DNA of 64,000 nucleotides from Escherichia phage ECP2303: sequence record PP261279.1; one strand, 5' to 3'. This document shows, one piece after another, positions 57 through 61,527 of the stretch; position 1 is the stretch's first letter, and each line of letters starts with the position of its first letter. The translations under genes were made by a program, and so were the position numbers. The notes under the pieces were generated by a model, which saw nothing but the letters and a program-made list of their open reading frames with translations, was not told the DNA's origin and made no database searches.

Positions 57-2039
57 TTATTTGATGTTATTCTTTGTATCAATCAGTTCACGGTATTCAA
101 TCATAGCAGGAGTGTCCCAATATTTCAAGCCTACATGCTTCAAAAGTGGATATTTCTTTTCCAATCTTGCAATATAGGCCTTCCCGCACTTAACCCGGTT
201 GGCGATTAAGATTTTGGCACGATGATTTAGCTCACCGTACTTCCACGTGGTGCTACCTTCCCACTTGTGAAAATGTGGCCGATAACTTCCAAAATCCTGC
301 ATGGGGATAATTTTACCTAACTGTCTGTACAGGCTGTCATATGAAGTTTCATTTGCTGCGCGAGTTAGTAAGAATTTCCAAGCATCCTCTTTCAACAAAT
401 GTTCCACATTCTTCTCTGTAACATATTGGCAATCAGGATCAGTCCAAAGCAGACGAGATTCCGACACCAGGTACAGATCTTCCCCTTCAGGAATCTGGAG
501 TGCCGCACGCACACGGTCATAATCTTGCTGGTAGATGTTGCTCATCTGCCCTAGCCAACAACTTCCGCGTTGGATATCCCCCTCATACGGTATGCAGTGC
601 TTAATCTTCCTGAACTCTGCCTTAGTAATACGCTCACGCCGGAAGTAACCATCCTTCTCAAGTTTTTTAACCCAATAGCCTGGTTCGTAACGGGTTTTGG
701 TTTCACCTTTCTTCGTAGGTCGGCGTGGAAGCTCCGATAACAATTTGACCGTATCTGCAAAAAACGGATGGTGTGCCGCCTCTTTAAACTCTTTCACCAG
801 ATCCGTGTTACGGCAATAGAAAACGTTGCGTCCGGTAATCTCGCTTAAGTAGTTACACTTATTCCGGTTATATTTGCCGTCTCCGTCGTTAAATACTAAA
901 TAAACTCCCCGTAAGAATTCTACCTTTCCGTAGCAGGCGTAACCTATGCGGCCTTTATTTAAGCCGCCAGCGAAGATCTCGCAGTCCCCCAAATTTCCTA
1001 GCCCTGTTTCTTCCCAGCGGTCATACATAAAATTCTTACCGAAGATGTGCCCGAACACTCCACTGTTCTTCATCATCTCGCGTGCTTCTGAGGATGTTTT
1101 TGCTGTCTCCAGTTCTGCAACAACTTCTGCTCCACGAAGGCGAATGCCTTCTTTGACAAAAGCTTCCAAACGCTCTTGGAATCCACCATCGTCGTGACCT
1201 TCTATGGTCCATTCACGCCCTGGGTTAATATTGCAATCTCCGATAGGGATCTCTACACAAATTGCAGGATAATCTATTAGTGTCTCCAGGAACTTAGAAC
1301 GGTAAGGTTGGTGACCCATTACCACACGACTCTCGTCAGAGCTGGTATAACCCTTCAGGATGGTCATTTTCCAACCATCCTTCTCGTAGTGATACTGCGC
1401 CTCAACCTTGTCACCTTCCAGCATCTTACTGGTCATAGGGTCGGTAACGGTAAACGGAAACTTTGCATAGCGTAGGCATGACGCAATAGCAGTGCGATAT
1501 TTCAGGACATGCTCTTTCTTAACATGGAACTGAACTTTTACCCCGTTGTGCTCTTCAGTCTTCCGCTCGCGGATCTTGGTAACGTTTGGGATACCCTGAT
1601 CCAAGAACAATAGATATGTGCTTTCAACACCATTGTGCACACTGATAACATCGAAAGTGTCCACCATGCTGAACGGAGCCTTTGAACCAACACCTTTATT
1701 ACCTACCAGAGCGTTGCTGTTGCGCTTGGTTGACTCCCCGAGGTTCATGAAAGTGTTGCGGACCATCTCTTCTGACATGCCCAATCCAACGTCCTGCACA
1801 AAGAAGTATGGTTCAAGGTCTGTAGGGGAGTGAATGATGATCGGTACATCACCCCGTCCAGACTCAACATGAGAGTCCACAGCATTGAAGATTGGTTCAC
1901 GGCAGCTTGCCAGCACCTTATCTTCGTAAATCCCTTTAATGATTAGCCCAAAAGTCTCTTTGTTCAGAGAAATTGAGCCCCTGGTGACCTCCATATTTCC
2001 GGTTAGTACTGCTTTAGTTTCATTACTGTTTACAATCAT
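57..2039 (-). CDS. GHKL-type ATPase domain protein, rIIA-like
   Basis: 660-aa ORF. N-terminal Bergerat-fold motifs are visible: E-x3-N-x2-D (EPIFNAVD), DxGxG (QDVGLGMS) and a Gly-rich G2 box (GNKGVGSK). Its stop region overlaps the start of the next gene (ATGA). T4 rIIA is known to carry an N-terminal GHKL domain. Confidence 0.6.
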   Translation of the reverse strand: MIVNSNETKAVLTGNMEVTRGSISLNKETFGLIIKGIYEDKVLASCREPIFNAVDSHVESGRGDVPIIIHSPTDLEPYFFVQDVGLGMSEEMVRNTFMNLGESTKRNSNALVGNKGVGSKAPFSMVDTFDVISVHNGVESTYLLFLDQGIPNVTKIRERKTEEHNGVKVQFHVKKEHVLKYRTAIASCLRYAKFPFTVTDPMTSKMLEGDKVEAQYHYEKDGWKMTILKGYTSSDESRVVMGHQPYRSKFLETLIDYPAICVEIPIGDCNINPGREWTIEGHDDGGFQERLEAFVKEGIRLRGAEVVAELETAKTSSEAREMMKNSGVFGHIFGKNFMYDRWEETGLGNLGDCEIFAGGLNKGRIGYACYGKVEFLRGVYLVFNDGDGKYNRNKCNYLSEITGRNVFYCRNTDLVKEFKEAAHHPFFADTVKLLSELPRRPTKKGETKTRYEPGYWVKKLEKDGYFRRERITKAEFRKIKHCIPYEGDIQRGSCWLGQMSNIYQQDYDRVRAALQIPEGEDLYLVSESRLLWTDPDCQYVTEKNVEHLLKEDAWKFLLTRAANETSYDSLYRQLGKIIPMQDFGSYRPHFHKWEGSTTWKYGELNHRAKILIANRVKCGKAYIARLEKKYPLLKHVGLKYWDTPAMIEYRELIDTKNNIK

Positions 2040-2536
2040 TTATTGCGCTCCTTGTAGTAGATATGACTCCCGAACTGAGCTGTCCTCTGCATCTTTTTTG
2101 CCCATTTCGGTCGTACTTTGGTTGTATGGTAGTGTGTTGCTCCACCTGTTATGTCCATAGCCATGTATGCAACATGGTTGTTATTATAGACCTTTAGAAG
2201 CATCTTTGCAAGACTTTTAGCGTGATCCCATGAATCTTTTTCTGTCACCTTAAAAGTTTTGCCGTGGTTTGTCCACGAAAACTGGTTAGGTTGGTAGACA
2301 ATCTTTCTTATGGTGTCTGGGTATTTGGGGTGAGATTTCCTGTTTAGGGTGGCAAACCCAGATGCCAGCATACCCATCGTGCCATCCCCTCTAGCTTCCC
2401 TGTAGATATTGCATGCTAGAATGTTTTCCTTAGTATCTGATGGCTTGCAAGTATGGTATACTTTTTGTTTTGGTGCTGCAACAACAGGCAGCGATAAAAA
2501 TGCGCTCAAAATAATAGCAAAGATCTTAATTTTCAC
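2036..2536 (-). CDS. Secreted cell-wall hydrolase, SleB/Hydrolase_2-like, with N-terminal signal peptide
   Basis: 166 aa. N-terminus MKIKIFAIILSAFLSLPVVAAP is a typical signal peptide. The motifs NIYREARGDG...ATLNRKSHPKYPDTIRKIVYQPNQFSW match the SleB-type cell-wall hydrolase signature. Confidence 0.6.
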   Translation of the reverse strand: MKIKIFAIILSAFLSLPVVAAPKQKVYHTCKPSDTKENILACNIYREARGDGTMGMLASGFATLNRKSHPKYPDTIRKIVYQPNQFSWTNHGKTFKVTEKDSWDHAKSLAKMLLKVYNNNHVAYMAMDITGGATHYHTTKVRPKWAKKMQRTAQFGSHIYYKERNK

Positions 2537-2585
2537 AATAACTCCAAATAGAAAATCCCCGCCGAAGCGGGGGAGGTCTTAGAAA

Positions 2586-2966
2586 TTAATCGTAGTGTGC
2601 CAAAATCTCTCCATCGTTGCAAGTTCCCTCTACAAAGTTATGAAGATTCATGCACTCATCTTGATAGAAGAATTTACCGCTTTTCAGCCGTAAGCCAAAC
2701 AACTCCGCATCTCCACGATGGCAAGCCTCTACAAGTTCATAGATTTCATACGGCAACTCTCCGTCGTCATGGAAGAACCCAGCCTTATCGTTGACATAGA
2801 TGAAGAAATAATCACTGCTGTCGCAAGCGTCCAATATTTTAAACCAGATTTCATCTACATCTTTTTCTCGGATATCGATCACGCAAGTGGAGCTGCATTC
2901 GTACTCCTTCTCCGGCTCCTCGGTCAATACCACCAGGTAGTTTCCCCGCTTACCTACTTTAGCCAT
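2586..2966 (-). CDS. Hypothetical protein (126 aa)
   Basis: ORF co-oriented with its neighbours and followed on the minus strand by a UUCG-tetraloop terminator at 2557-2574. Confidence 0.55.
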   Translation of the reverse strand: MAKVGKRGNYLVVLTEEPEKEYECSSTCVIDIREKDVDEIWFKILDACDSSDYFFIYVNDKAGFFHDDGELPYEIYELVEACHRGDAELFGLRLKSGKFFYQDECMNLHNFVEGTCNDGEILAHYD

Positions 2967-2975
2967 ACAACCTCC

Positions 2976-4160
2976 TTAAGCTTTAGCCAAAATGGCGCTA
3001 AACTCTTCACCAAACTCTTTTACAATCTTCATCAGGTTTGGGTATGCTTTGATCAGCTGAGCAACGATCTTGTCACGACCTTTACCGATAAGCAAGGCAT
3101 TTCCTAAGGCATTAGGTTTCATCATCGCCATAAAGACTGAAAATACAAAATCTCGGTTCTCGTCCTTGAAGTTTTCCCAAAGGAAATCGAGAAAGTTTGC
3201 CACACAGCTAACAAGATCTTCGTCGGAGATACTTGCATTTTCCATCATATTACGAATAGCGATGCAACCTTCAGATCCAAGAATCCACAAGATGTCTGGC
3301 TGTTTAGGACCTACGTATTCTTTGCAACCTCCTGCCATAATCCGACCGATTTCCGGTAAGTTGCGTTTCTTGGTGTGGTAAGTCCAGATCTCTACCGCTG
3401 CAGTGTGACCAATAGCACCTTGCAGAAGAACACGGGCCATAGCGTCAGAAATAATACCGCTGTCAAAATCGTGCAAGATATCAGATGCAGCAACCCAAGA
3501 TCGCGGTGTGGCAAAAGATGGACAATTAATCTCAGCCATGGCCTCATAATTATCGATAGCTGATGGAACTCTTTTCAGATATCCAATTACAGAGGAGTGC
3601 ACCCCATTAAGGAATGCGTAGTCCTCAATAAACACCTCTGCATTGCTTGTAACCTCTACAATGATAAAACGGTTAGCCAGAGGGGCTTCGAGCGCCGAAA
3701 GAACCGCACCATCTGTAGAACGGTTACCAGCAGCCACAAAAACAGACCCCTTAGGGAATGCATAAGTACCGCACTTGTGGTCAAGCATAATTTGCATTGC
3801 AACCTTTTGTAGGTAGTTATCTGCATGAGTGAGCTCATCCAGAAAGATAATTCCGCTCCAGTCAGGATCCGCAGGCCAAAATTCTGGAATTGCAAACACT
3901 GTACGTGTAGTTCCATCCGCTTCTACAGGGATAGGTAGCCCAGATAAGTCGGCAGGATCTTTATCTGACAGCCGCACGTCAACAAGGTTGTCATCTCGCT
4001 CACCGAACATATTATCAGCGATCTGCTTCATCACCTGGCTTTTACCTACACCCATTGGTCCCAAAATTAGGACAGATCGGCTATGACGTTGGGCAAACTG
4101 AATAATAGCTGGCAACTCACGGACAGTGATTTGACCACTTTCGAATACGTTTCTTGACAT
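2976..4160 (-). CDS. MoxR-like AAA+ ATPase
   Basis: 394 aa. Walker A LILGPMGVGKSQ and Walker B IIFLDELTHA in a single AAA domain followed by a C-terminal extension, which is the MoxR/AAA_5 architecture. Confidence 0.8.
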   Translation of the reverse strand: MSRNVFESGQITVRELPAIIQFAQRHSRSVLILGPMGVGKSQVMKQIADNMFGERDDNLVDVRLSDKDPADLSGLPIPVEADGTTRTVFAIPEFWPADPDWSGIIFLDELTHADNYLQKVAMQIMLDHKCGTYAFPKGSVFVAAGNRSTDGAVLSALEAPLANRFIIVEVTSNAEVFIEDYAFLNGVHSSVIGYLKRVPSAIDNYEAMAEINCPSFATPRSWVAASDILHDFDSGIISDAMARVLLQGAIGHTAAVEIWTYHTKKRNLPEIGRIMAGGCKEYVGPKQPDILWILGSEGCIAIRNMMENASISDEDLVSCVANFLDFLWENFKDENRDFVFSVFMAMMKPNALGNALLIGKGRDKIVAQLIKAYPNLMKIVKEFGEEFSAILAKA

Positions 4161-5491: not shown

Positions 5492-5762
5492 TTGTCATTT
5501 TACATTCTTGAAATTTTAACACAAGACGGTGATTGTGTCTAGTGTCTAAAAAGATTTTTTCAACCATCAGGCACACGGTATAACCGTCCATCTTGTTGAC
5601 AACAAAATCTCCAGGGTAAGGGAGAGTGTCCCCTGGGCTGGGAAAGCATAACCCGCTCAGAAAGGCATCATCGGTGGTGGACTTAATGGATTTCCACACA
5701 CTATCTGCCTGAACATTCTCACCAACATAATATACACTACCACATGACTTCATCATAGTCAA
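5484..5762 (-). CDS. Hypothetical protein (92 aa)
   Basis: Co-oriented ORF overlapping both neighbours by a few codons; the true start is uncertain. Confidence 0.4.
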   Translation of the reverse strand: MTMMKSCGSVYYVGENVQADSVWKSIKSTTDDAFLSGLCFPSPGDTLPYPGDFVVNKMDGYTVCLMVEKIFLDTRHNHRLVLKFQECKMTIA

Positions 5763-6657
5763 TCTCCGCGTAAATTAAACTGGAATCAGTATACTTCTTT
5801 AATGGGTAAATATCCTGTCCATAGATGCAATCATTAAACACCTCATCTACCCAAAGGCTACGCTTATATCCCATCATTTCTAAAACACTCATCTCTTCTT
5901 CGGTAAACTTATCACCACTCTTGCAAGATGTCAATACCTCATTTTGAACTCTTGCTACCTCGAATCGGTTATTGGCAATATCGCTATTGGCGATCAAATA
6001 CTCACCTAGAGGGTGTGCGGCATTAAAGATGCACAGTGGACGGCTGACGTAATAGTCTCCGGGTGTATAAAAATTGTTGAGGTCTTTCACTAGAACATTC
6101 TTATCAGTCACTTCATTTATAACATCATGCATATCGCACATCTTTATATGTTTGAGGATTCCATCTCCCATCACAAAATAAAAACTTGCTGAGACACTTT
6201 CGGCATAGATCTTACTAGATCCGTTGTAGTTGTATTTTACTCGGATGCTAACGGGGGTTTTTCCTGTCGCGTTAGCCATCATCCAAAGAAATGGCAGCTC
6301 ATACTTCTCCTCTGAGGAAACAAAAGGTGAGGTAGCCAGAGATCGAAAACCTCCAGAGAAGTTGAAAGTTACAGAACCGCTCCGGCGGTATGATACCGCG
6401 TATTCTACTTTTATATCGACGTACCCATTGGAATAGGTGTGTCCTTCATTATCTAAATATGTCCACTTATCAGACCCAGATACCAATCTACGCTCAATAA
6501 CCTTCATCACTACAGGAATTAGTGGGTTGGTACAAACCGCTTTTGAAGTAGCTTTATCATCTAAAGCCTCGTAAATTGCAGAAAGGATGTCCCCAGCTGA
6601 AAGATTGGTTGTTATGTCCTGTTTCCACCGCGTACTAAAACTGTTAAGATTTGCCAT
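5737..6657 (-). CDS. Hypothetical protein (306 aa); first gene of the leftward early operon
   Basis: ATG at 6657 is preceded by AGGAG on the minus strand and lies just downstream of the TTGACT-N17-TATAGT promoter. Confidence 0.65.
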   Translation of the reverse strand: MANLNSFSTRWKQDITTNLSAGDILSAIYEALDDKATSKAVCTNPLIPVVMKVIERRLVSGSDKWTYLDNEGHTYSNGYVDIKVEYAVSYRRSGSVTFNFSGGFRSLATSPFVSSEEKYELPFLWMMANATGKTPVSIRVKYNYNGSSKIYAESVSASFYFVMGDGILKHIKMCDMHDVINEVTDKNVLVKDLNNFYTPGDYYVSRPLCIFNAAHPLGEYLIANSDIANNRFEVARVQNEVLTSCKSGDKFTEEEMSVLEMMGYKRSLWVDEVFNDCIYGQDIYPLKKYTDSSLIYAEIDYDEVMW

Positions 6658-6697: not shown

Positions 6698-6726
6698 ACT
6701 ATATTGTGGAGTTAGAGTAAAGTCAA
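6698..6726 (-). promoter_or_regulatory. Sigma70-like promoter for the leftward early operon
   Basis: Minus strand reads TTGACT (6726-6721), a 17-nt spacer, then TATAGT (6703-6698). An AGGAG-ATG follows about 40 nt downstream. Confidence 0.6.
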
Positions 6727-42071: not shown

Positions 42072-42749
42072 TTAGTGCGGTCCACTTGTCTCGCCATCAG
42101 GGCAAGAGTGGGTATGACCTTTATATTCTGCATAGAATGAATCCAAATCCACACCAGCAGCAGTTATAATTCTACCAGATGGGTCTATTGTGGCACCATT
42201 CATTCTGATATTTCCATCCACAGCAGCTCGCAAATTGGCAGCCCCGTTAGTGAAAGAAAACTCCCCGCTACTGTCGCACCGTAATGTCCCACCAGGTGTT
42301 TGAAGCTCAAAATCGCCAGAAGGTGTCAGTTTAAAATAAACCATATCATTCCATAACTCTACGTTATCAGGATCGATCTGTAAAGCGTTTGAGTCTGAAT
42401 GAACAGAGGTGATTGCCCACCCTGGAAACAGGCCGTGAGTTTGTTGATCGTCGTTATTGTTTTCATTTCTCTCTGAAAACTGCAATCCTACAACATCCCC
42501 AGCCTTAATAGGAAGTGTTAACCTTGCCTTTCCGCTGTTTGCAGACATCACCTGAATTGGAACGTCATAGATAAGAGGGTATCTCTCCACATCCCCGTCA
42601 TCAAACGTGGTTTCAGCTATTGGCTGCACGGCTGCAGAAGGTATACTGTAGTCAACACTGACAACTCTGGCCCTGATACTGGTGTGATAGTCCCTCATTA
42701 TTTTTTCTATAAAGGATCTTACAGCAGCATCTTTCCTATTTATTGCCAT
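42072..42749 (-). CDS. Baseplate central spike (P2 gpV-like)
   Basis: 225 aa. C-terminal apex motif GHTHSCPDGETSGPH (His-x-His) as in gpV-type spikes; located in the hub region downstream of the tape measure. Confidence 0.6.
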   Translation of the reverse strand: MAINRKDAAVRSFIEKIMRDYHTSIRARVVSVDYSIPSAAVQPIAETTFDDGDVERYPLIYDVPIQVMSANSGKARLTLPIKAGDVVGLQFSERNENNNDDQQTHGLFPGWAITSVHSDSNALQIDPDNVELWNDMVYFKLTPSGDFELQTPGGTLRCDSSGEFSFTNGAANLRAAVDGNIRMNGATIDPSGRIITAAGVDLDSFYAEYKGHTHSCPDGETSGPH

Positions 42750-58063: not shown

Positions 58064-59611
58064 TTAGATAAAACGCTTGAACATAGAAGGTGATGAGATT
58101 GATGGAATCACACAAGGCAGCGCTACCTCCTCTTTCTCTAGGAAATTAATCGCAGAAGCTACACAGTCGGCCCAGTCGTCTTTTCTGTTAAATGTTGATC
58201 TTTCCCCGTTGAACTTTTCAAGTTCAGTCAGAAATGCTTCCAGAGTGTCAGGATGGAAACTGGATTTTACAATCCTCACCATTCCTTGTTGGGCAAGATT
58301 GGCAAAAGGTGAGAACCTTGTCAGTTTAGATTTGTTGGAAGGCATTGGATCTTCTTCAACCCTGAACCCTTCGGCGAGCAAGGATCTGGATGAGGTTAAG
58401 AACTCACTCTTACCTGCCTGGCCGGGGTCCACAGAAAATACGATTATGCAATCATCTCCATCAAACTGTGCCTGTTTCCTGATGATCACATCTCGTTCCC
58501 CAGCCTTTTTACAGAACTTGCCTTCCAGACCTGTGGAATACCTACCGTCATCCACGTTCTCAGGACAATAATCTCCGGACAGGTAATAAAAGCCGTCGCT
58601 ATCTTTACTTACCTTAACACTGGCGGTAAAGTCAGGAAATTTATTACCGGAAGTTCTCTCGGTCCCTGCCTTATCCCATGCCCTGCAAGATACTGATCCA
58701 AGAGGTACTCTATCGGCATCCCGAAGGAAAGATCTTTGGAAATAGTTTGCACCCTCAGGTTTGGCAAACCAGTTGCCATGAAGAAGCTGGGCTTTTTCAA
58801 GCTCTGGCAGACCTTCAAGGAAAGCAAGGTATTCTGGGTTGTCTCTCAAGCAGACAGGATTATCGAAAATTGTTGCGCCTATAAACGAGAATGACAACGG
58901 TCTTGGCTTGATCTCCACACCCAGTCCGTTAACCGTGGTGTATTTCTCTATTAACTCTTCTTTAGAGTCTCCCCAAATAAATTCACCGTCGCGTCGGATA
59001 AAATATCTTTTCTTACCACATTTCTCCGGATCTGGATACCCTTCATCGTCCAACCACCACCTAACCAGTTTGGCAAGCATGTGTTCTGAGTCGGGGTTAC
59101 AGCTGATAACCATTCTTGATGGATACTTTGACTGAGATCGCAGACGAGACATCAAATAGTCTATCTGCTCCCATTCGAATTGCGTGCCTTCATCGAAGCA
59201 AACCATGGTGTACTCAAGGCCTTGATGGTTAAGCTTATCTTGGACATACTCCATGTGGCAGTATTTTACAACGGCCCCCTTTTTGCTCCTATCCCACTTG
59301 CCAGTGCTCGGATCAAACCGTGGAAAAATAAACTTATGATCCTTCTCTCTGAACTTTGGTTTAATGTTTTCAGGCAGATCACTGTAAATAGCTACTGCTT
59401 TAGGCCATAGCCCACCCTCACCTTCCAACTGGGGAGTTGTTCTTCGGAACATAACCACAGAGCTGTGCGGGTCATCAATAATTTTAAGCGGCATTAGCTG
59501 CAAGAGGAACGACTTGCCAGACCCAGCTGCACCTCCGATCACCAAAATATCTGCATCGTTCTCTAGGATCATCTTCTGCTTTTCAGAACACGGTCCGTAA
59601 ATCTTAGACAT
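58064..59611 (-). CDS. Terminase large subunit
   Basis: 515 aa. Walker A GGAAGSGKS, Walker B MVCFDE, and a C-terminal nuclease-type acidic region (VFSVDPGQAGKSEF). Start overlaps the o-spanin stop. Confidence 0.9.
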   Translation of the reverse strand: MSKIYGPCSEKQKMILENDADILVIGGAAGSGKSFLLQLMPLKIIDDPHSSVVMFRRTTPQLEGEGGLWPKAVAIYSDLPENIKPKFREKDHKFIFPRFDPSTGKWDRSKKGAVVKYCHMEYVQDKLNHQGLEYTMVCFDEGTQFEWEQIDYLMSRLRSQSKYPSRMVISCNPDSEHMLAKLVRWWLDDEGYPDPEKCGKKRYFIRRDGEFIWGDSKEELIEKYTTVNGLGVEIKPRPLSFSFIGATIFDNPVCLRDNPEYLAFLEGLPELEKAQLLHGNWFAKPEGANYFQRSFLRDADRVPLGSVSCRAWDKAGTERTSGNKFPDFTASVKVSKDSDGFYYLSGDYCPENVDDGRYSTGLEGKFCKKAGERDVIIRKQAQFDGDDCIIVFSVDPGQAGKSEFLTSSRSLLAEGFRVEEDPMPSNKSKLTRFSPFANLAQQGMVRIVKSSFHPDTLEAFLTELEKFNGERSTFNRKDDWADCVASAINFLEKEEVALPCVIPSISSPSMFKRFI

Positions 59612-59898
59612 TAACCTCTCTCCTTTGGAAACAGTGTTCTTATATAGTCTTGCAAAATGATCAATTTAGCTCTATCATTACTACAAGACAGGTTATTATC
59701 CCTCATAATGCCAGAATTCACCGCATCTGGCGCACCTTTCTTCAAAGGGATAGCTTTAGCAGGTGGTTTCATAGCACCCTCGGGAGGTTTAACAATCAAC
59801 CTTCCTACATTCGGAGGGTCAATCTTGTATTCTCTCTCAACGCTGGTTGCACACCCACACAATAACAAGCACAAAACAACCAGTGCAGTAACTCTCAT
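59611..59898 (-). CDS. o-spanin (outer-membrane lipoprotein, Rz1-like)
   Basis: Signal peptide with lipobox (LLLCGC); Pro-rich mature part (PPNVGRLIVKPPEGAMKPPAKAIP); 95 aa; immediately downstream of the i-spanin. Confidence 0.65.
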   Translation of the reverse strand: MRVTALVVLCLLLCGCATSVEREYKIDPPNVGRLIVKPPEGAMKPPAKAIPLKKGAPDAVNSGIMRDNNLSCSNDRAKLIILQDYIRTLFPKERG

Positions 59899-60293
59899 CG
59901 AACCTCCTGATTGATACTCTCATTATAAATATCTATTAGCTGATCAGGAAGTGTTGACTTCTTACCTTCAGGAGATTGGAGGTAGATAATCTGCTTTTCT
60001 TTACCTGCCTTCTCAGCCATATTTAATTTATCCTGTAGATCAGAAAGAGATTTTTCAAGGTTTTTAACCTCCTCTGCGTGGCCCATTTTAATTTTGTCGG
60101 CCTGCTTTTGTTGTTGGTCAAGGATCCGTTCCCACTTTAACTCTGTTGCTGACACACCTTCTTGATAAGCATCATTGAGCTTAGAGTTAAACCAATACAC
60201 GGCCCCAAGATAAGCCATGCCTATAGCCGCTGCAAAAACTAAACCTTTTATGATCCCTCTGTGTTTACTCATCAATGTTAAAACTGAAATCAT
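59895..60293 (-). CDS. i-spanin (Rz-like)
   Basis: N-terminal transmembrane segment (GLVFAAAIGMAYLGAVYWF) followed by a long charged coiled-coil; ATGA overlap with the o-spanin gene. Confidence 0.6.
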   Translation of the reverse strand: MISVLTLMSKHRGIIKGLVFAAAIGMAYLGAVYWFNSKLNDAYQEGVSATELKWERILDQQQKQADKIKMGHAEEVKNLEKSLSDLQDKLNMAEKAGKEKQIIYLQSPEGKKSTLPDQLIDIYNESINQEVR

Positions 60294-60715: not shown

Positions 60716-60792
60716 TGGTCTCCACGGAGTGATTCGAACACTCGACCTCCTGATCCCAAATCAGGCGCTCTACCAAGCTGAGCTACGCGGAG
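60716..60792 (-). tRNA. tRNA-Pro (anticodon UGG)
   Basis: 77-nt cloverleaf folded by hand: 7-bp acceptor stem (one G-U), D-arm GCTC/GAGC, anticodon loop UUUGGGA, T-loop TTCGAAT, encoded CCA. Confidence 0.8.
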
Positions 60793-60803
60793 TATTTATT
60801 ATT

Positions 60804-60878
60804 TGGTGGCCCTGGGTGGAATTGAACCACCGTCTGGCGATTATGAGTCGCTTGCTTGAACCTTCCAGCTACAGGGCC
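60804..60878 (-). tRNA. tRNA-Met or Ile2 (anticodon CAU)
   Basis: 75 nt. Perfect acceptor stem GGCCCTG/CAGGGCC, T-arm GGTGG-TTCAATT-CCACC, anticodon loop CUCAUAA, CCA encoded. D-arm and the 27-43 pair are imperfect. Confidence 0.6.
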
Positions 60879-60879
60879 A

Positions 60880-60955
60880 TGGTGCTGATGGCAGGACTTG
60901 AACCTGCAACCTATTGATTACAAATCAATTGCACTGACAATTGTGCTACATCAGC
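60880..60955 (-). tRNA. tRNA-Thr (anticodon UGU)
   Basis: 76 nt. Acceptor GCTGATG/CATCAGC, D-arm GCAC/GTGC, anticodon loop UUUGUAA, T-arm GCAGG-TTCAAGT-CCTGC, CCA encoded. Confidence 0.8.
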
Positions 60956-60959
60956 AAAA

Positions 60960-61058
60960 GGTGCTAGGTGATGGAATCGAACCACCTATGTATTCAACGA
61001 CTACCTCGTCTATTTTCAGGATTAAAAATCCTCGCCCTTGCCAAAGGGCTTACCTAGC
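60960..61058 (-). tRNA. Atypical tRNA-like element (possible tRNA-Lys UUU with oversized variable region, or pseudo-tRNA)
   Basis: About 99 nt. Perfect 7-bp acceptor stem GCTAGGT/ACCTAGC, D-arm GCCC/GGGC and T-arm GGTGG-TTCGATT-CCATC. The central 46 nt holds a perfect hairpin AGGATT-TTT-AATCCT (readable as a loop UUUUUAA) plus a further 28 nt. Confidence 0.4.
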
Positions 61059-61156
61059 GCAATATGTTGACCATGTGGCTAGTCGGCGATGACGACTGTA
61101 ACATTTGATAATCCGGTTCTGCTTCCGGCTTTCGCTTAATTACAAGGTCAACAATG

Positions 61157-61247
61157 TGGCGGAGAGTAATGGAATCGAACCATCATCGAGTTATCCTCAA
61201 CGGGACGGTTTTCAAGACCGCTTGAGCACCATTGCTCCCTACCCTCC
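61157..61247 (-). tRNA. tRNA-Ser (anticodon UGA), class II
   Basis: About 91 nt. Acceptor GGAGGGT/ACTCTCC (one G-U), anticodon loop CUUGAAA, long variable arm, T-loop TTCGATT, CCA encoded. Confidence 0.65.
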
Positions 61248-61361
61248 TTTATAAATTACACTGATAATGACACTGATTTTCGAGCAGTTAGTGACTAGTA
61301 TAAACGACGATAAATATCAATGTCATTATCTGTATGATTTATGCATTTAAAAATATAAATT

Positions 61362-61448
61362 TGGTGGGGAGTGGTGGAGTCGAACCACCCGAGTCGCAAT
61401 GACAATAGATTTACAGTCTACACCGCTACCTCTACGGGATAACTCCCC
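61362..61448 (-). tRNA. tRNA-Tyr (anticodon GUA), class II
   Basis: About 87 nt. Acceptor GGGGAGT/ACTCCCC, anticodon loop CUGUAAA, long variable arm, T-arm GGTGG-TTCGACT-CCACC, CCA encoded. Confidence 0.65.
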
Positions 61449-61452
61449 AATT

Positions 61453-61527
61453 TGGCACCCCGTACTGGACTCGAACCAGTGTCAACGGCTTAGAAGGCCG
61501 CTGCTTTATCCACTAAGCTAACAGGGC
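61453..61527 (-). tRNA. tRNA-Arg (anticodon UCU)
   Basis: 75 nt. Acceptor GCCCTGT/ACGGGGT (two G-U), D-arm GCTT/AAGC, anticodon loop CUUCUAA, T-arm ACTGG-TTCGAGT-CCAGT, CCA encoded. Confidence 0.8.

Follow-up and report, generated by a model that had tools for sequence, protein, structure and literature searches.

Does the SleB-like cell wall hydrolase encoded in the rII region of this phage serve as its endolysin? The question arises from the 64,000-nucleotide stretch of DNA that was analysed here (the window), in which the initial annotation, having seen no canonical endolysin next to the spanin genes, proposed that the distant hydrolase gene could encode a secreted endolysin transcribed from an early promoter or, alternatively, a hydrolase with a non-lysis role. 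The window belongs to an rV5-like Vequintavirus and is essentially Escherichia phage ECP2309. On balance, the hydrolase is probably not the canonical endolysin but an accessory enzyme that weakens the wall, namely a lytic transglycosylase that reaches the periplasm through Sec, independently of a holin, and is made at a low level. The gene and the main features of its product are as follows:

2036..2536, minus strand: CDS of the SleB-like (Hydrolase_2) cell wall hydrolase, 166 aa (ORF list, Pfam, annotation, AF2 and Foldseek)
2477..2536, minus strand: predicted Sec signal peptide MKIKIFAIILSAFLSLPVVA, codons 1-20, with predicted signal peptidase I cleavage VVA/AP, the slash marking the cleavage point (sequence heuristic and homologues)
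2396..2398, minus strand: codon of Glu47, the predicted catalytic glutamate, in the motif YREARG (alignment to SleB and conservation among homologues)

The gene itself is already known. It is annotated as rV5 gene 2 (WXX18306.1 in ECP2309) and has been called "cell wall hydrolase" since 2013, and the signal peptide of the rV5 gene 2 product and its conservation across the Vequintavirinae were in print in 2020; its detection here, though correct, repeats what had been annotated before. With copies of at least 95% identity in about 115 phage records, it cannot be an accidental reading frame.

The product is a small, very basic, single-domain protein. The Pfam family Hydrolase_2 (PF07486) matches its residues 51-161 over profile positions 2-100 of 100 (E = 2.1e-19; 70.4 bits vs. 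a gathering cutoff of 27), and PHROG 938, labelled 'endolysin', matches it with E = 1.7e-27. The AlphaFold2 model has a mean pLDDT of 95.1, with residues 21-37 forming a short strand and a linker, and its only Foldseek matches in the PDB are 4F55 and 4FET (target TM-score 0.75-0.79, rmsd 2.7 Å), namely: the catalytic domains of SleB from B. cereus and B. anthracis. In the alignment with these domains, YREARGD lies over YGESRGE, so that Glu47 falls on the Glu of the SleB motif and fits the family pattern (Y/F)xE(A/S)RG. The profile match, the SleB-like model and the invariance of Glu47 bear out the SleB-type motifs reported in the initial annotation. We infer from this homology that the hydrolase is a peptidoglycan lytic transglycosylase of the Hydrolase_2 (SleB catalytic domain) family.

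That the protein is instead a catalytically inactive, wall-binding pseudo-enzyme would agree with two observations. It does not reach the SleB equivalog TIGR02869 of NCBIfam, scoring far under the threshold (48.3 bits vs. a cutoff of 236.5) and covering profile positions 83-201 only, and the cysteine pair typical of the family, found 8 residues before and 30 residues after the catalytic Glu, is replaced in this lineage by Cys30 and Cys42. The co-occurrence of these two cysteines is what suggests a Cys30-Cys42 disulfide. However, Glu47 and Arg66 are invariant in an alignment of 86 homologues, Tyr45, Arg49, Asn65, the QFS motif, His158 and Tyr161 are nearly so, and the model is confident and SleB-like, which makes a dead enzyme very improbable.

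The N-terminus of the hydrolase reads MKIK-IFAIILSAFLSLPVV-A/APK and has the tripartite form of a Sec signal peptide: a basic n-region, a strongly hydrophobic h-region of about 15 residues (IFAIILSAFLSLPVV), of which roughly one third are small, and a Pro at -6 with V-V-A at -3 to -1. The signal peptide was called with a hand-made heuristic, not with SignalP. The V-V-A/A ending of the h-region favours a cleaved signal peptide, and the segment may alternatively be an uncleaved signal anchor. Equivalent signals are found in the diverged homologues of Seunavirus, Certrevirus, T5-like and phAPEC8-like phages, and 129 of 146 close relatives begin with a hydrophobic segment. The pattern is kept despite sequence divergence, as in P0002 (81% identity), which has MKKFILAILLGILVSLPSFA directly before the A at the corresponding cleavage point. 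A signal peptide was also reported for the Certrevirus homologue CB7_83 (PMC7344957). The claim of a classical signal peptide thus holds, and the protein has the make-up of a Sec-exported lysin of the kind represented by fOg44 Lys44 and ASG01 Cwh, in which a muralytic domain follows a three-part signal peptide ending in a signal peptidase I site.

Such a signal also bears on a role in the virion. Large myoviruses often carry virion-associated lysins that pierce the wall, and the "baseplate central spike and tail lysozyme" annotated at 42072-42749 was rejected as a muralytic protein, having only the hub N-terminal domain and no lysozyme domain; the position of a lysin acting at DNA injection is therefore apparently vacant. 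The hydrolase hardly qualifies for it. A cleavable export signal is incompatible with virion assembly in the cytoplasm, the gene lies outside the structural module, and none of the six tryptic peptides of gp2 that were sought appears in the mass spectrometry table of rV5 virions (supplement), the virion proteome being the place where the initial annotation had suggested looking. Since gp2 peptides are missing from that table and the signal peptide does not fit cytoplasmic assembly, we conclude that the hydrolase is not a virion protein; the chance that it is one seems negligible.

The case for a secreted endolysin had been built on the surroundings of the spanin genes, which are:

59611..60293, minus strand: o-spanin (59611-59898, lipobox LLLCGC) and i-spanin (59895-60293, N-terminal TMD) (ORFs and sequence features)

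These genes adjoin the gene for the large terminase subunit and are 57 kb from the hydrolase gene. Neither the annotation nor a Pfam search of the neighbours revealed a muralytic gene beside them, and the 89-aa ORF that adjoins them has no domain and no TMD. The observation on this neighbourhood is thus correct, but the conclusion that no other endolysin is present is not. A lambda-R-type lysozyme of 156 aa is encoded at record positions 102813-103283 of the complete genome PP464953.1, about 6.3 kb beyond the end of the window, and the apparent lack of an endolysin is an artefact, because the window boundary leaves this gene out. Pfam and NCBIfam gave no match for it; its identity was set by a PDB sequence search, in which it matches lambda lysozyme (PDB 1AM7) with E = 3e-56, and by the literature. 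It has no hydrophobic N-terminus and shows 97% identity to rV5 gp89, the 'obvious lysin' in the words of the rV5 authors. Another rV5-like phage encodes LysECP26, an endolysin of 156 aa with about 98% identity to that of rV5, and the purified enzyme lysed 29 of 29 Gram-negative strains (PMC9728275). A different endolysin elsewhere in the genome was what the initial annotation had named as refuting its proposal, which is therefore borne out only in part. All Vequintavirus genomes examined keep the lambda-R-type endolysin, and a putative holin with two TMDs is encoded elsewhere in the genome (record 125502-125729).

The hydrolase differs from a canonical endolysin of this type, which has no export signal, in carrying an N-terminal signal peptide. 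Its gene is not part of a lysis cassette either: the neighbours encode a 126-aa hypothetical protein and rIIA, and both the spanins and the putative holin are distant.

A word-index search for homologues of the hydrolase returned only 10 proteins; the extent of the family emerged from an exhaustive HMMER search, with 11,334 cluster representatives. The SleB-like gene is a core gene, present in all genera of the Vequintavirinae (45-53% identical in genera other than Vequintavirus), whereas the canonical endolysin varies by genus: it is of the lambda-R type here, an M15C peptidase in Septuagintavirus, the modular gp146 in PVP-SE1, and a T5-type peptidase or a lysozyme-like enzyme in Certrevirus. 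Conserved presence beside an exchangeable partner is what one might expect if the hydrolase were the principal endolysin, exported early through Sec and activated when the membrane is de-energised, as for Lys44 of fOg44, with the lambda-R-type lysozyme being secondary. In Certrevirus, moreover, a 62-aa holin-like gene with two TMDs overlaps the 3' end of the homologue; in some phages, for instance Nankokuvirus CHA_P1 and ASG01, the homologue is the only annotated endolysin; and expression of homologues has been lytic or toxic (PMC10975977, PMC7344957). Nevertheless, we regard this as unlikely. The lambda-R-type endolysin of Vequintavirus is lytic by experiment, and a canonical endolysin appears to be needed because each genus keeps one. 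No holin gene adjoins the hydrolase gene in Vequintavirus; a conserved holin partner is seen only in Certrevirus, and the downstream genes of T5-like and phAPEC8-like phages, VivaForever and Nankokuvirus encode no TMDs. The context of the gene also speaks against a principal lysin, given the terminator in front of it, the GTG start, the lack of a late-promoter motif and the location in the replication/rII block. The features around it are:

2534..2545, minus strand: translation start, with a GGAG Shine-Dalgarno sequence at 2542-2545, a 5-nt spacer and GTG at 2534-2536 (sequence)
2547..2572, minus strand: intrinsic-terminator-like hairpin CCCCGC-TTCG-GCGGGG followed by ATTTTCTATT, rV5 t003 (terminator scan, rV5 Table S4)
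57..2039, minus strand: rIIA homologue (ORF coordinates, annotation, HATPase_c_3 domain)
6698..6726, minus strand: sigma-70-type promoter TTGACT-17-TATAGT, rV5 P010 (promoter scan, rV5 Table S4)

The hydrolase gene is located in a non-structural block of the replication or early type, in the rII region. P010 is the nearest sigma-70 promoter and heads the minus-strand transcription unit that holds the gene, and the late-type motif of rV5 (TGGTAAAATA), which a late-promoter search found enriched in the structural module, is absent near it. Transcription from an early promoter, as first proposed, is plausible but too simple a picture, given the GTG start and the nine genes and the terminator t003 that separate P010 from the hydrolase gene. 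A literature search for a Vequintavirinae transcriptome gave a single match, which dealt with a T5-like phage.

The hairpin t003 stands between the hydrolase gene and the upstream gene for the 126-aa protein (2586-2966), and its stability is -16 kcal/mol in rV5 Table S4 and -17.5 kcal/mol by RNA folding (z = -2.4). A hairpin of unlike sequence occupies the same place in Seunavirus. It may be a leaky terminator or an RNA-stability element. Masking of the ribosome site, in the manner of T4 gene e, was considered and not adopted, as the weak lower stem in which GGAG meets UUUC in the minimum free energy fold is not conserved in Seunavirus. Start codons other than ATG are used by 19 of the 215 annotated CDS in the genome (9%), and by the hydrolase gene in four of seven sampled lineages, which go back to no more than about two or three separate events. 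Downstream, the ATG of rIIA overlaps the stop codon of the hydrolase gene (ATGA), and the two genes are therefore probably translationally coupled. Together, these indirect signals suggest that the hydrolase is made in small amounts. A further signal of this kind is that T5-like phages carry a homologue in their early region and have a separate lysozyme and holin besides.

The same context fits a non-lytic function, in which the hydrolase would remodel periplasmic peptidoglycan, whether to hinder superinfecting phages, to block division or enlarge the cell, or to work with the envelope-related rIIA and rIIB proteins. The position directly upstream of rIIA-rIIB-helicase is kept in Vequintavirus and Seunavirus, with the ATGA overlap here; the context is of the early type in Vequintavirinae, T5-like and phAPEC8-like phages; sigma-70-like promoters lie immediately upstream of the homologue in three lineages; and a full canonical lysis set coexists. 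On the other hand, homologues lyse or kill cells when expressed (PMC10975977, PMC7344957), and the link to rII is not obligatory, because Certrevirus keeps the hydrolase without rIIA and rIIB. We consider remodelling a possible, if rather unlikely, explanation.

A more speculative extension, which we think improbable, casts the hydrolase not as a redundant lysin but as the partner of rIIA/rIIB in a conserved envelope module that acts before the late stage. Under-expressed because of the upstream terminator, its weak start codon and its coupling to rIIA in translation, it would be pre-loaded in the periplasm and stay harmless while the rII 'membrane integrity protector' proteins help keep the membrane energised; collapse of the membrane potential, whether by the holin or by an abortive-infection system, would then bring immediate wall failure. 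If true, the rII proteins would have a definite partner, and large virulent phages a fuse for lysis that works without a holin.

Returning to the accessory wall-weakening enzyme, which is the reading that we favour, we propose the following course. The primary product would be a precursor bearing a classical Sec signal peptide, made in apparently small amounts given the terminator upstream at the end of a sigma-70-driven unit, the GTG start and the coupling to rIIA. It would be exported to the periplasm without a holin, probably cleaved after Ala20, and would cut glycan strands there through Glu47, as homology suggests. The role of canonical endolysin would fall to the cytoplasmic, holin-needing lambda-R-type lysozyme, with the hydrolase, as a Vequintavirinae core gene product, supplying a second, accessory wall-degrading activity. 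The sacculus may thereby be pre-weakened or remodelled during infection, and final lysis sped up or backed up. Among the points that weigh against this proposal, an active muralytic enzyme freely exported ahead of the late stage ought to endanger the cell that makes it, and the hydrolase and the lysozyme would both be lytic transglycosylases.

The matter reaches beyond this phage. Hundreds of large virulent phages (among them Vequintavirinae, T5-like and phAPEC8-like phages) pair a signal-peptide-bearing Hydrolase_2 protein, encoded in an early-type block, with a full canonical lysis set. Knowing what the extra enzyme does, and how the cell tolerates an exported wall cutter until infection ends, would sharpen the model of how phages lyse Gram-negative hosts, and enzybiotic developers would learn which of the two "endolysins" in such phages matters.

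Among known systems, the closest is rV5 gp2, an orthologue of identical product length (166 aa) encoded at the same place upstream of rIIA. Certrevirus CB7_83 and CR3_087 of a Cronobacter phage ('cell wall hydrolase SleB') are also orthologues, and CB7_83 of the Pectobacterium phage was stated to be toxic when expressed, data not being shown in the paper (PMC7344957). The differences from the gene studied here are slight: the Certrevirus gene has an ATG start and its own promoter-like site, and is followed by the holin-like protein with two TMDs rather than by rIIA/rIIB.

A more distant relative, Cwh of Aeromonas phage ASG01, combines Hydrolase_2 with a 23-aa signal peptide. Its expression lysed E. 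coli in the absence of a holin, and experiments showed that its cysteines are important (PMC10975977). The precedent is imperfect, since the pLysS-type host makes T7 lysozyme and the Glu-to-Ala mutant was partly active. Both proteins have a single Hydrolase_2 domain after the signal peptide, but Cwh has the family-typical cysteine pair instead of Cys30/Cys42 and is the only annotated lysin of its phage, whereas a canonical endolysin coexists here. T5.083 of T5 and the phAPEC8-like 'cell wall hydrolase SleB' proteins (34-40% identical to the hydrolase) are likewise signal-peptide-bearing Hydrolase_2 proteins from early-type regions of phages with a separate canonical endolysin and holin; the T5 homologue differs in having the family-typical cysteine pair and no rII neighbours.

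The SleB spore-cortex lytic transglycosylases of Bacillus (4F55, 4FET) share the fold of the catalytic domain and the catalytic Glu motif. Unlike them, the hydrolase lacks an N-terminal peptidoglycan-binding domain, Hydrolase_2 being its only Pfam match, and its host does not sporulate. SleB recognises muramic-delta-lactam in the spore cortex, which E. coli murein does not contain, and the substrate must be ordinary E. coli murein. Finally, the Sec system brings some other muralytic enzymes to the wall without a holin hole, namely Lys44 of Oenococcus phage fOg44 and the like, and the SAR endolysins (P1 Lyz, phage 21 R). They are the sole endolysins of their phages and are encoded within lysis cassettes, and SAR domains are uncleaved and rich in Gly, Ala and Ser. 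The hydrolase differs from them in its short, strongly hydrophobic h-region with a V-x-A site, and in a gene that lies away from the other lysis genes.

The hydrolase gene encodes, as the initial annotation held, a SleB-like protein with a signal peptide.

2036-2536, minus strand: hydrolase ORF, 166 aa, with a GTG start preceded, at 5 nt, by a GGAG ribosome-binding site
Hydrolase residues 1-20: predicted signal peptide, MKIK / IFAIILSAFLSLPVV / A, from a sequence heuristic

The protein matches Pfam Hydrolase_2 with 70.4 bits (E=2e-19; cutoff 27), and its YREARGD aligns over YGESRGE in the catalytic domains of the B. cereus and B. anthracis SleB proteins. An 86-sequence alignment was built from the 11,334 cluster representatives found by an exhaustive HMMER search (E<=1e-3). 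In this alignment Glu47 and Arg66 are invariant, while Tyr45, Arg49, Gly55, Asn65, Gln85-Phe86-Ser87, Pro143, Trp145, His158 and Tyr161 are near-invariant; that the hydrolase is a pseudo-enzyme is hardly credible. AlphaFold2 models the protein with very high confidence (mean pLDDT 95.1, pTM 0.85), and the model's only PDB matches are two SleB catalytic-domain structures (target TM-score 0.75-0.79). The NCBIfam SleB equivalog score is 48 bits against a 236.5-bit cutoff, and a Pfam search finds no N-terminal peptidoglycan-binding domain of SleB; together these rule out a true SleB (spore-enzyme) orthologue. The hydrolase is a Hydrolase_2 family member.

By our own heuristic, residues 1-20 form a tripartite signal: the n-region is basic, the hydrophobic core spans ~15 residues, and Pro stands at -6, with V-V-A ahead of A-P-K. 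Predicted cleavage after Ala20 agrees with the -3/-1 rule; a cut shifted downstream by one residue would leave Pro at +1, where signal peptidase I does not tolerate it. The pattern is retained despite sequence drift among homologues, and an N-terminal hydrophobic segment occurs in 129 of the 146 close relatives, i.e. those with the catalytic motif.

P0002 (homologue, 81% identical): MKKFILAILLGILVSLPSFA, then A
Seunavirus SPLA5a: ending in KIKAIILATACAFSLTTTPVLA, then KE; start cut off in the deposited annotation
Certrevirus P7_Pc: MKKSTAALFAASALSFASVPALA, then KD
T5-like DT57C, T5.083: MKAALLLVAALTFSFSSQA, then SH
phAPEC8-like: ending in LLSLTAFTFTPVVAKA, then E

The full ORF of Salmonella phage SPLA5a (OR413583.1; L006:4001-4531) starts with TTG at 4001 behind GGAG. 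The 'endolysin' CDS as deposited begins at a Met codon inside this ORF, at 4148, and so lacks both the signal peptide and the stretch leading up to the catalytic Glu. The database proteins P0003 and P0025 are comparable 111-aa truncated versions. The mature hydrolase has two cysteines, Cys30 and Cys42, which stand in for the family-typical pair (at -8 and +30 relative to the catalytic Glu) and are found together in the Vequintavirinae/phAPEC8-like lineage; this co-occurrence suggests a periplasmic disulfide.

Over its first 8 kb the window is essentially 100% identical to the rV5-like Vequintavirus Escherichia phage ECP2309 (PP464953.1), and it matches >100 further rV5-like genomes there at 90-99%. 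Across the whole window, the sole differences from PP464953.1 are a single-nucleotide deletion near 5762 and substitutions at 42343 and 46302; record positions convert to window positions by subtracting 32459 before the indel and 32460 after it. The deletion lies within 5757-5765 (GTCAATCTCC in the window, GTCAAATCTCC in PP464953.1) and alters the 3' end of a 'putative 1-3 fucosyltransferase' ORF (306 aa, 5737-6657, in the window; 299 aa in PP464953.1). In the tRNA cluster at 60716-61527 (minus strand), ARAGORN makes seven predictions: six are Pro, Met, Thr, Ser, Tyr and Arg, and the other is an odd 'tRNA-???' (60960-61058) of 99 nt with a four-base anticodon. The rV5 paper lists six tRNAs only.

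The proposal that the hydrolase is the endolysin rested on the apparent lack of any other, and the record supplies one beyond the window.

Record 102813-103283: lambda-R-type endolysin, 156 aa, ~6.3 kb past the window's right end
Record 125502-125729 (outside the window): putative holin, 75 aa, two predicted TMDs, charged C-terminus YYKNIRKESRDGDRT

The 156-aa lysozyme hits PDB 1AM7, lambda lysozyme R, with E=3e-56, has no hydrophobic N-terminus, and is 97.4% identical to rV5 gp89, the "obvious lysin" of the rV5 authors. LysECP26, from another rV5-like phage, is likewise 156 aa and shares 62% identity with lambda R and ~98% with the rV5 endolysin; the purified enzyme lysed 29/29 Gram-negative strains (PMC9728275). 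The hydrolase itself matches PHROG 938 "endolysin"; with the lambda-R-type enzyme encoded as well, it is quite unlikely to be the main endolysin. The putative holin lies 22 kb from the endolysin and resembles rV5 gp129, which the rV5 paper proposed as a putative holin. In CB7, rV5 and PVP-SE1 the spanin genes neighbour the terminase gene and form no part of a lysis cassette (PMC7344957). With endolysin, holin candidate and spanins all in the genome, the canonical set is therefore complete, only dispersed, and the idea of the hydrolase standing in for an absent endolysin arises only from where the window ends.

Directly downstream of the endolysin, a 68-aa ORF (L005:11347-11553; record 103347-103553, outside the window) has a hydrophobic N-terminus, FLLAILFMAACFACGVVFAG, that could be a signal peptide, a lipoprotein signal or a single TMD. 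A Pfam search of this ORF gave no match; it is possibly an unrecognised lysis accessory protein. For the product of 42072-42749 (minus strand), named 'baseplate central spike and tail lysozyme' in the annotation, a domain search returned only the phage hub N-terminal domain (PF18352) and no lysozyme domain, so 'lysozyme' seems to have been carried over in annotation. Hydrolase peptides are absent from the rV5 virion MS table, and a virion lysin is a very remote prospect.

The early promoter put forward initially is plausible but too simple.

6698-6726, minus strand: sigma-70 promoter rV5 P010, TTGACT-17-TATAGT, member of a divergent pair
2547-2572, minus strand: terminator-like hairpin rV5 t003, CCCCGC-TTCG-GCGGGG then ATTTTCTATT, dG -16 kcal/mol

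The gene does belong to the minus-strand unit headed by P010, but nine genes and the strong t003 hairpin intervene. GGAG and GTG follow t003 directly, leaving no space for a promoter. In the minimum-free-energy fold of 2534-2590 (minus strand), this GGAG pairs with UUUC just past the upstream stop codon, as a weak lower stem under the hairpin; this pairing is not conserved in Seunavirus. Seunavirus has a hairpin of other sequence (AGCCCC-TTTCTT-GGGGCT-TTTTT) at the equivalent site, and a TTG start. GTG or TTG starts occur in 4 of 7 sampled lineages (Vequintavirus, Seunavirus, phAPEC8-like, VivaForever), representing only two or three independent events; 19 of the 215 CDS of ECP2309 have non-ATG starts. 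Certrevirus, phAPEC8-like and VivaForever phages carry a sigma-70-like site 25-35 nt upstream of the homologue. The T4-late-like (rV5 late-type) motif TGGTAAAATA has 18 matches against 5.9 expected (<=1 mismatch), enriched in the structural module; none was found near the hydrolase gene. Its copies, nearly all on the minus strand within that module (15435-59271), fit the late promoters proposed for rV5. The start of rIIA overlaps the hydrolase stop codon (ATGA). Promoter, hairpin, start codon, lack of a nearby late motif and rIIA overlap combined suggest host-polymerase-dependent, pre-late, low-level expression. No transcriptome for Vequintavirinae was found in the literature.

Homologues occur in 1,336 phage records (tblastn), and the order hydrolase-rIIA-rIIB-helicase is common to Vequintavirus and Seunavirus. 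A non-lytic remodelling or rII-linked role is, in our estimate, unlikely. The canonical endolysin is exchangeable across Vequintavirinae: it is of lambda-R type in this phage, while Septuagintavirus has an M15C peptidase, Certrevirus a T5-type peptidase or lysozyme-like enzyme, and PVP-SE1 the modular gp146. Since the SleB-like gene stays constant throughout, its function is arguably not simply redundant with the endolysin. The gene is real and was rightly described initially, yet its annotation and discussion in the literature go back years: in rV5 Table S3 the entry for gene 2, immediately before rIIA, reads "cell wall hydrolase, 166 aa, PF07486", several papers remark on "two endolysins" in such phages, and SleB-like proteins with a signal peptide are reported in all Vequintavirinae genera (PMC7344957).

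Taken together, an exported accessory lytic transglycosylase that weakens the wall appears the most likely mechanism, if by a modest preference. The protein is very probably exported by Sec and processed by signal peptidase I to a holin-independent lytic transglycosylase of the periplasm; the enzyme may plausibly be produced sparingly ahead of lysis and act as an accessory. This raises the questions of why, in so many large virulent phages, an early-type gene block supplies a second wall-cutting enzyme for export, and how the phages survive this.

Experimental support for this mechanism is drawn from homologues only. ASG01 Cwh lysed E. coli without a holin and lost activity on mutation of conserved residues, in a test host with a pLysS-type plasmid and with the Glu mutant only partly defective (PMC10975977). 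Expressing CB7_83 proved toxic to E. coli (data not shown; PMC7344957). Bacillus SleB shares the catalytic domain with the hydrolase, whereas the N-terminal peptidoglycan-binding domain belongs to SleB only. Certrevirus lacks rII, and a 62-aa two-TMD holin-like gene overlaps the hydrolase gene instead. In T5-like phages the homologue lies in the early region and comes on top of their own lysozyme and holin, and in phAPEC8-like phages it is a second lytic protein.
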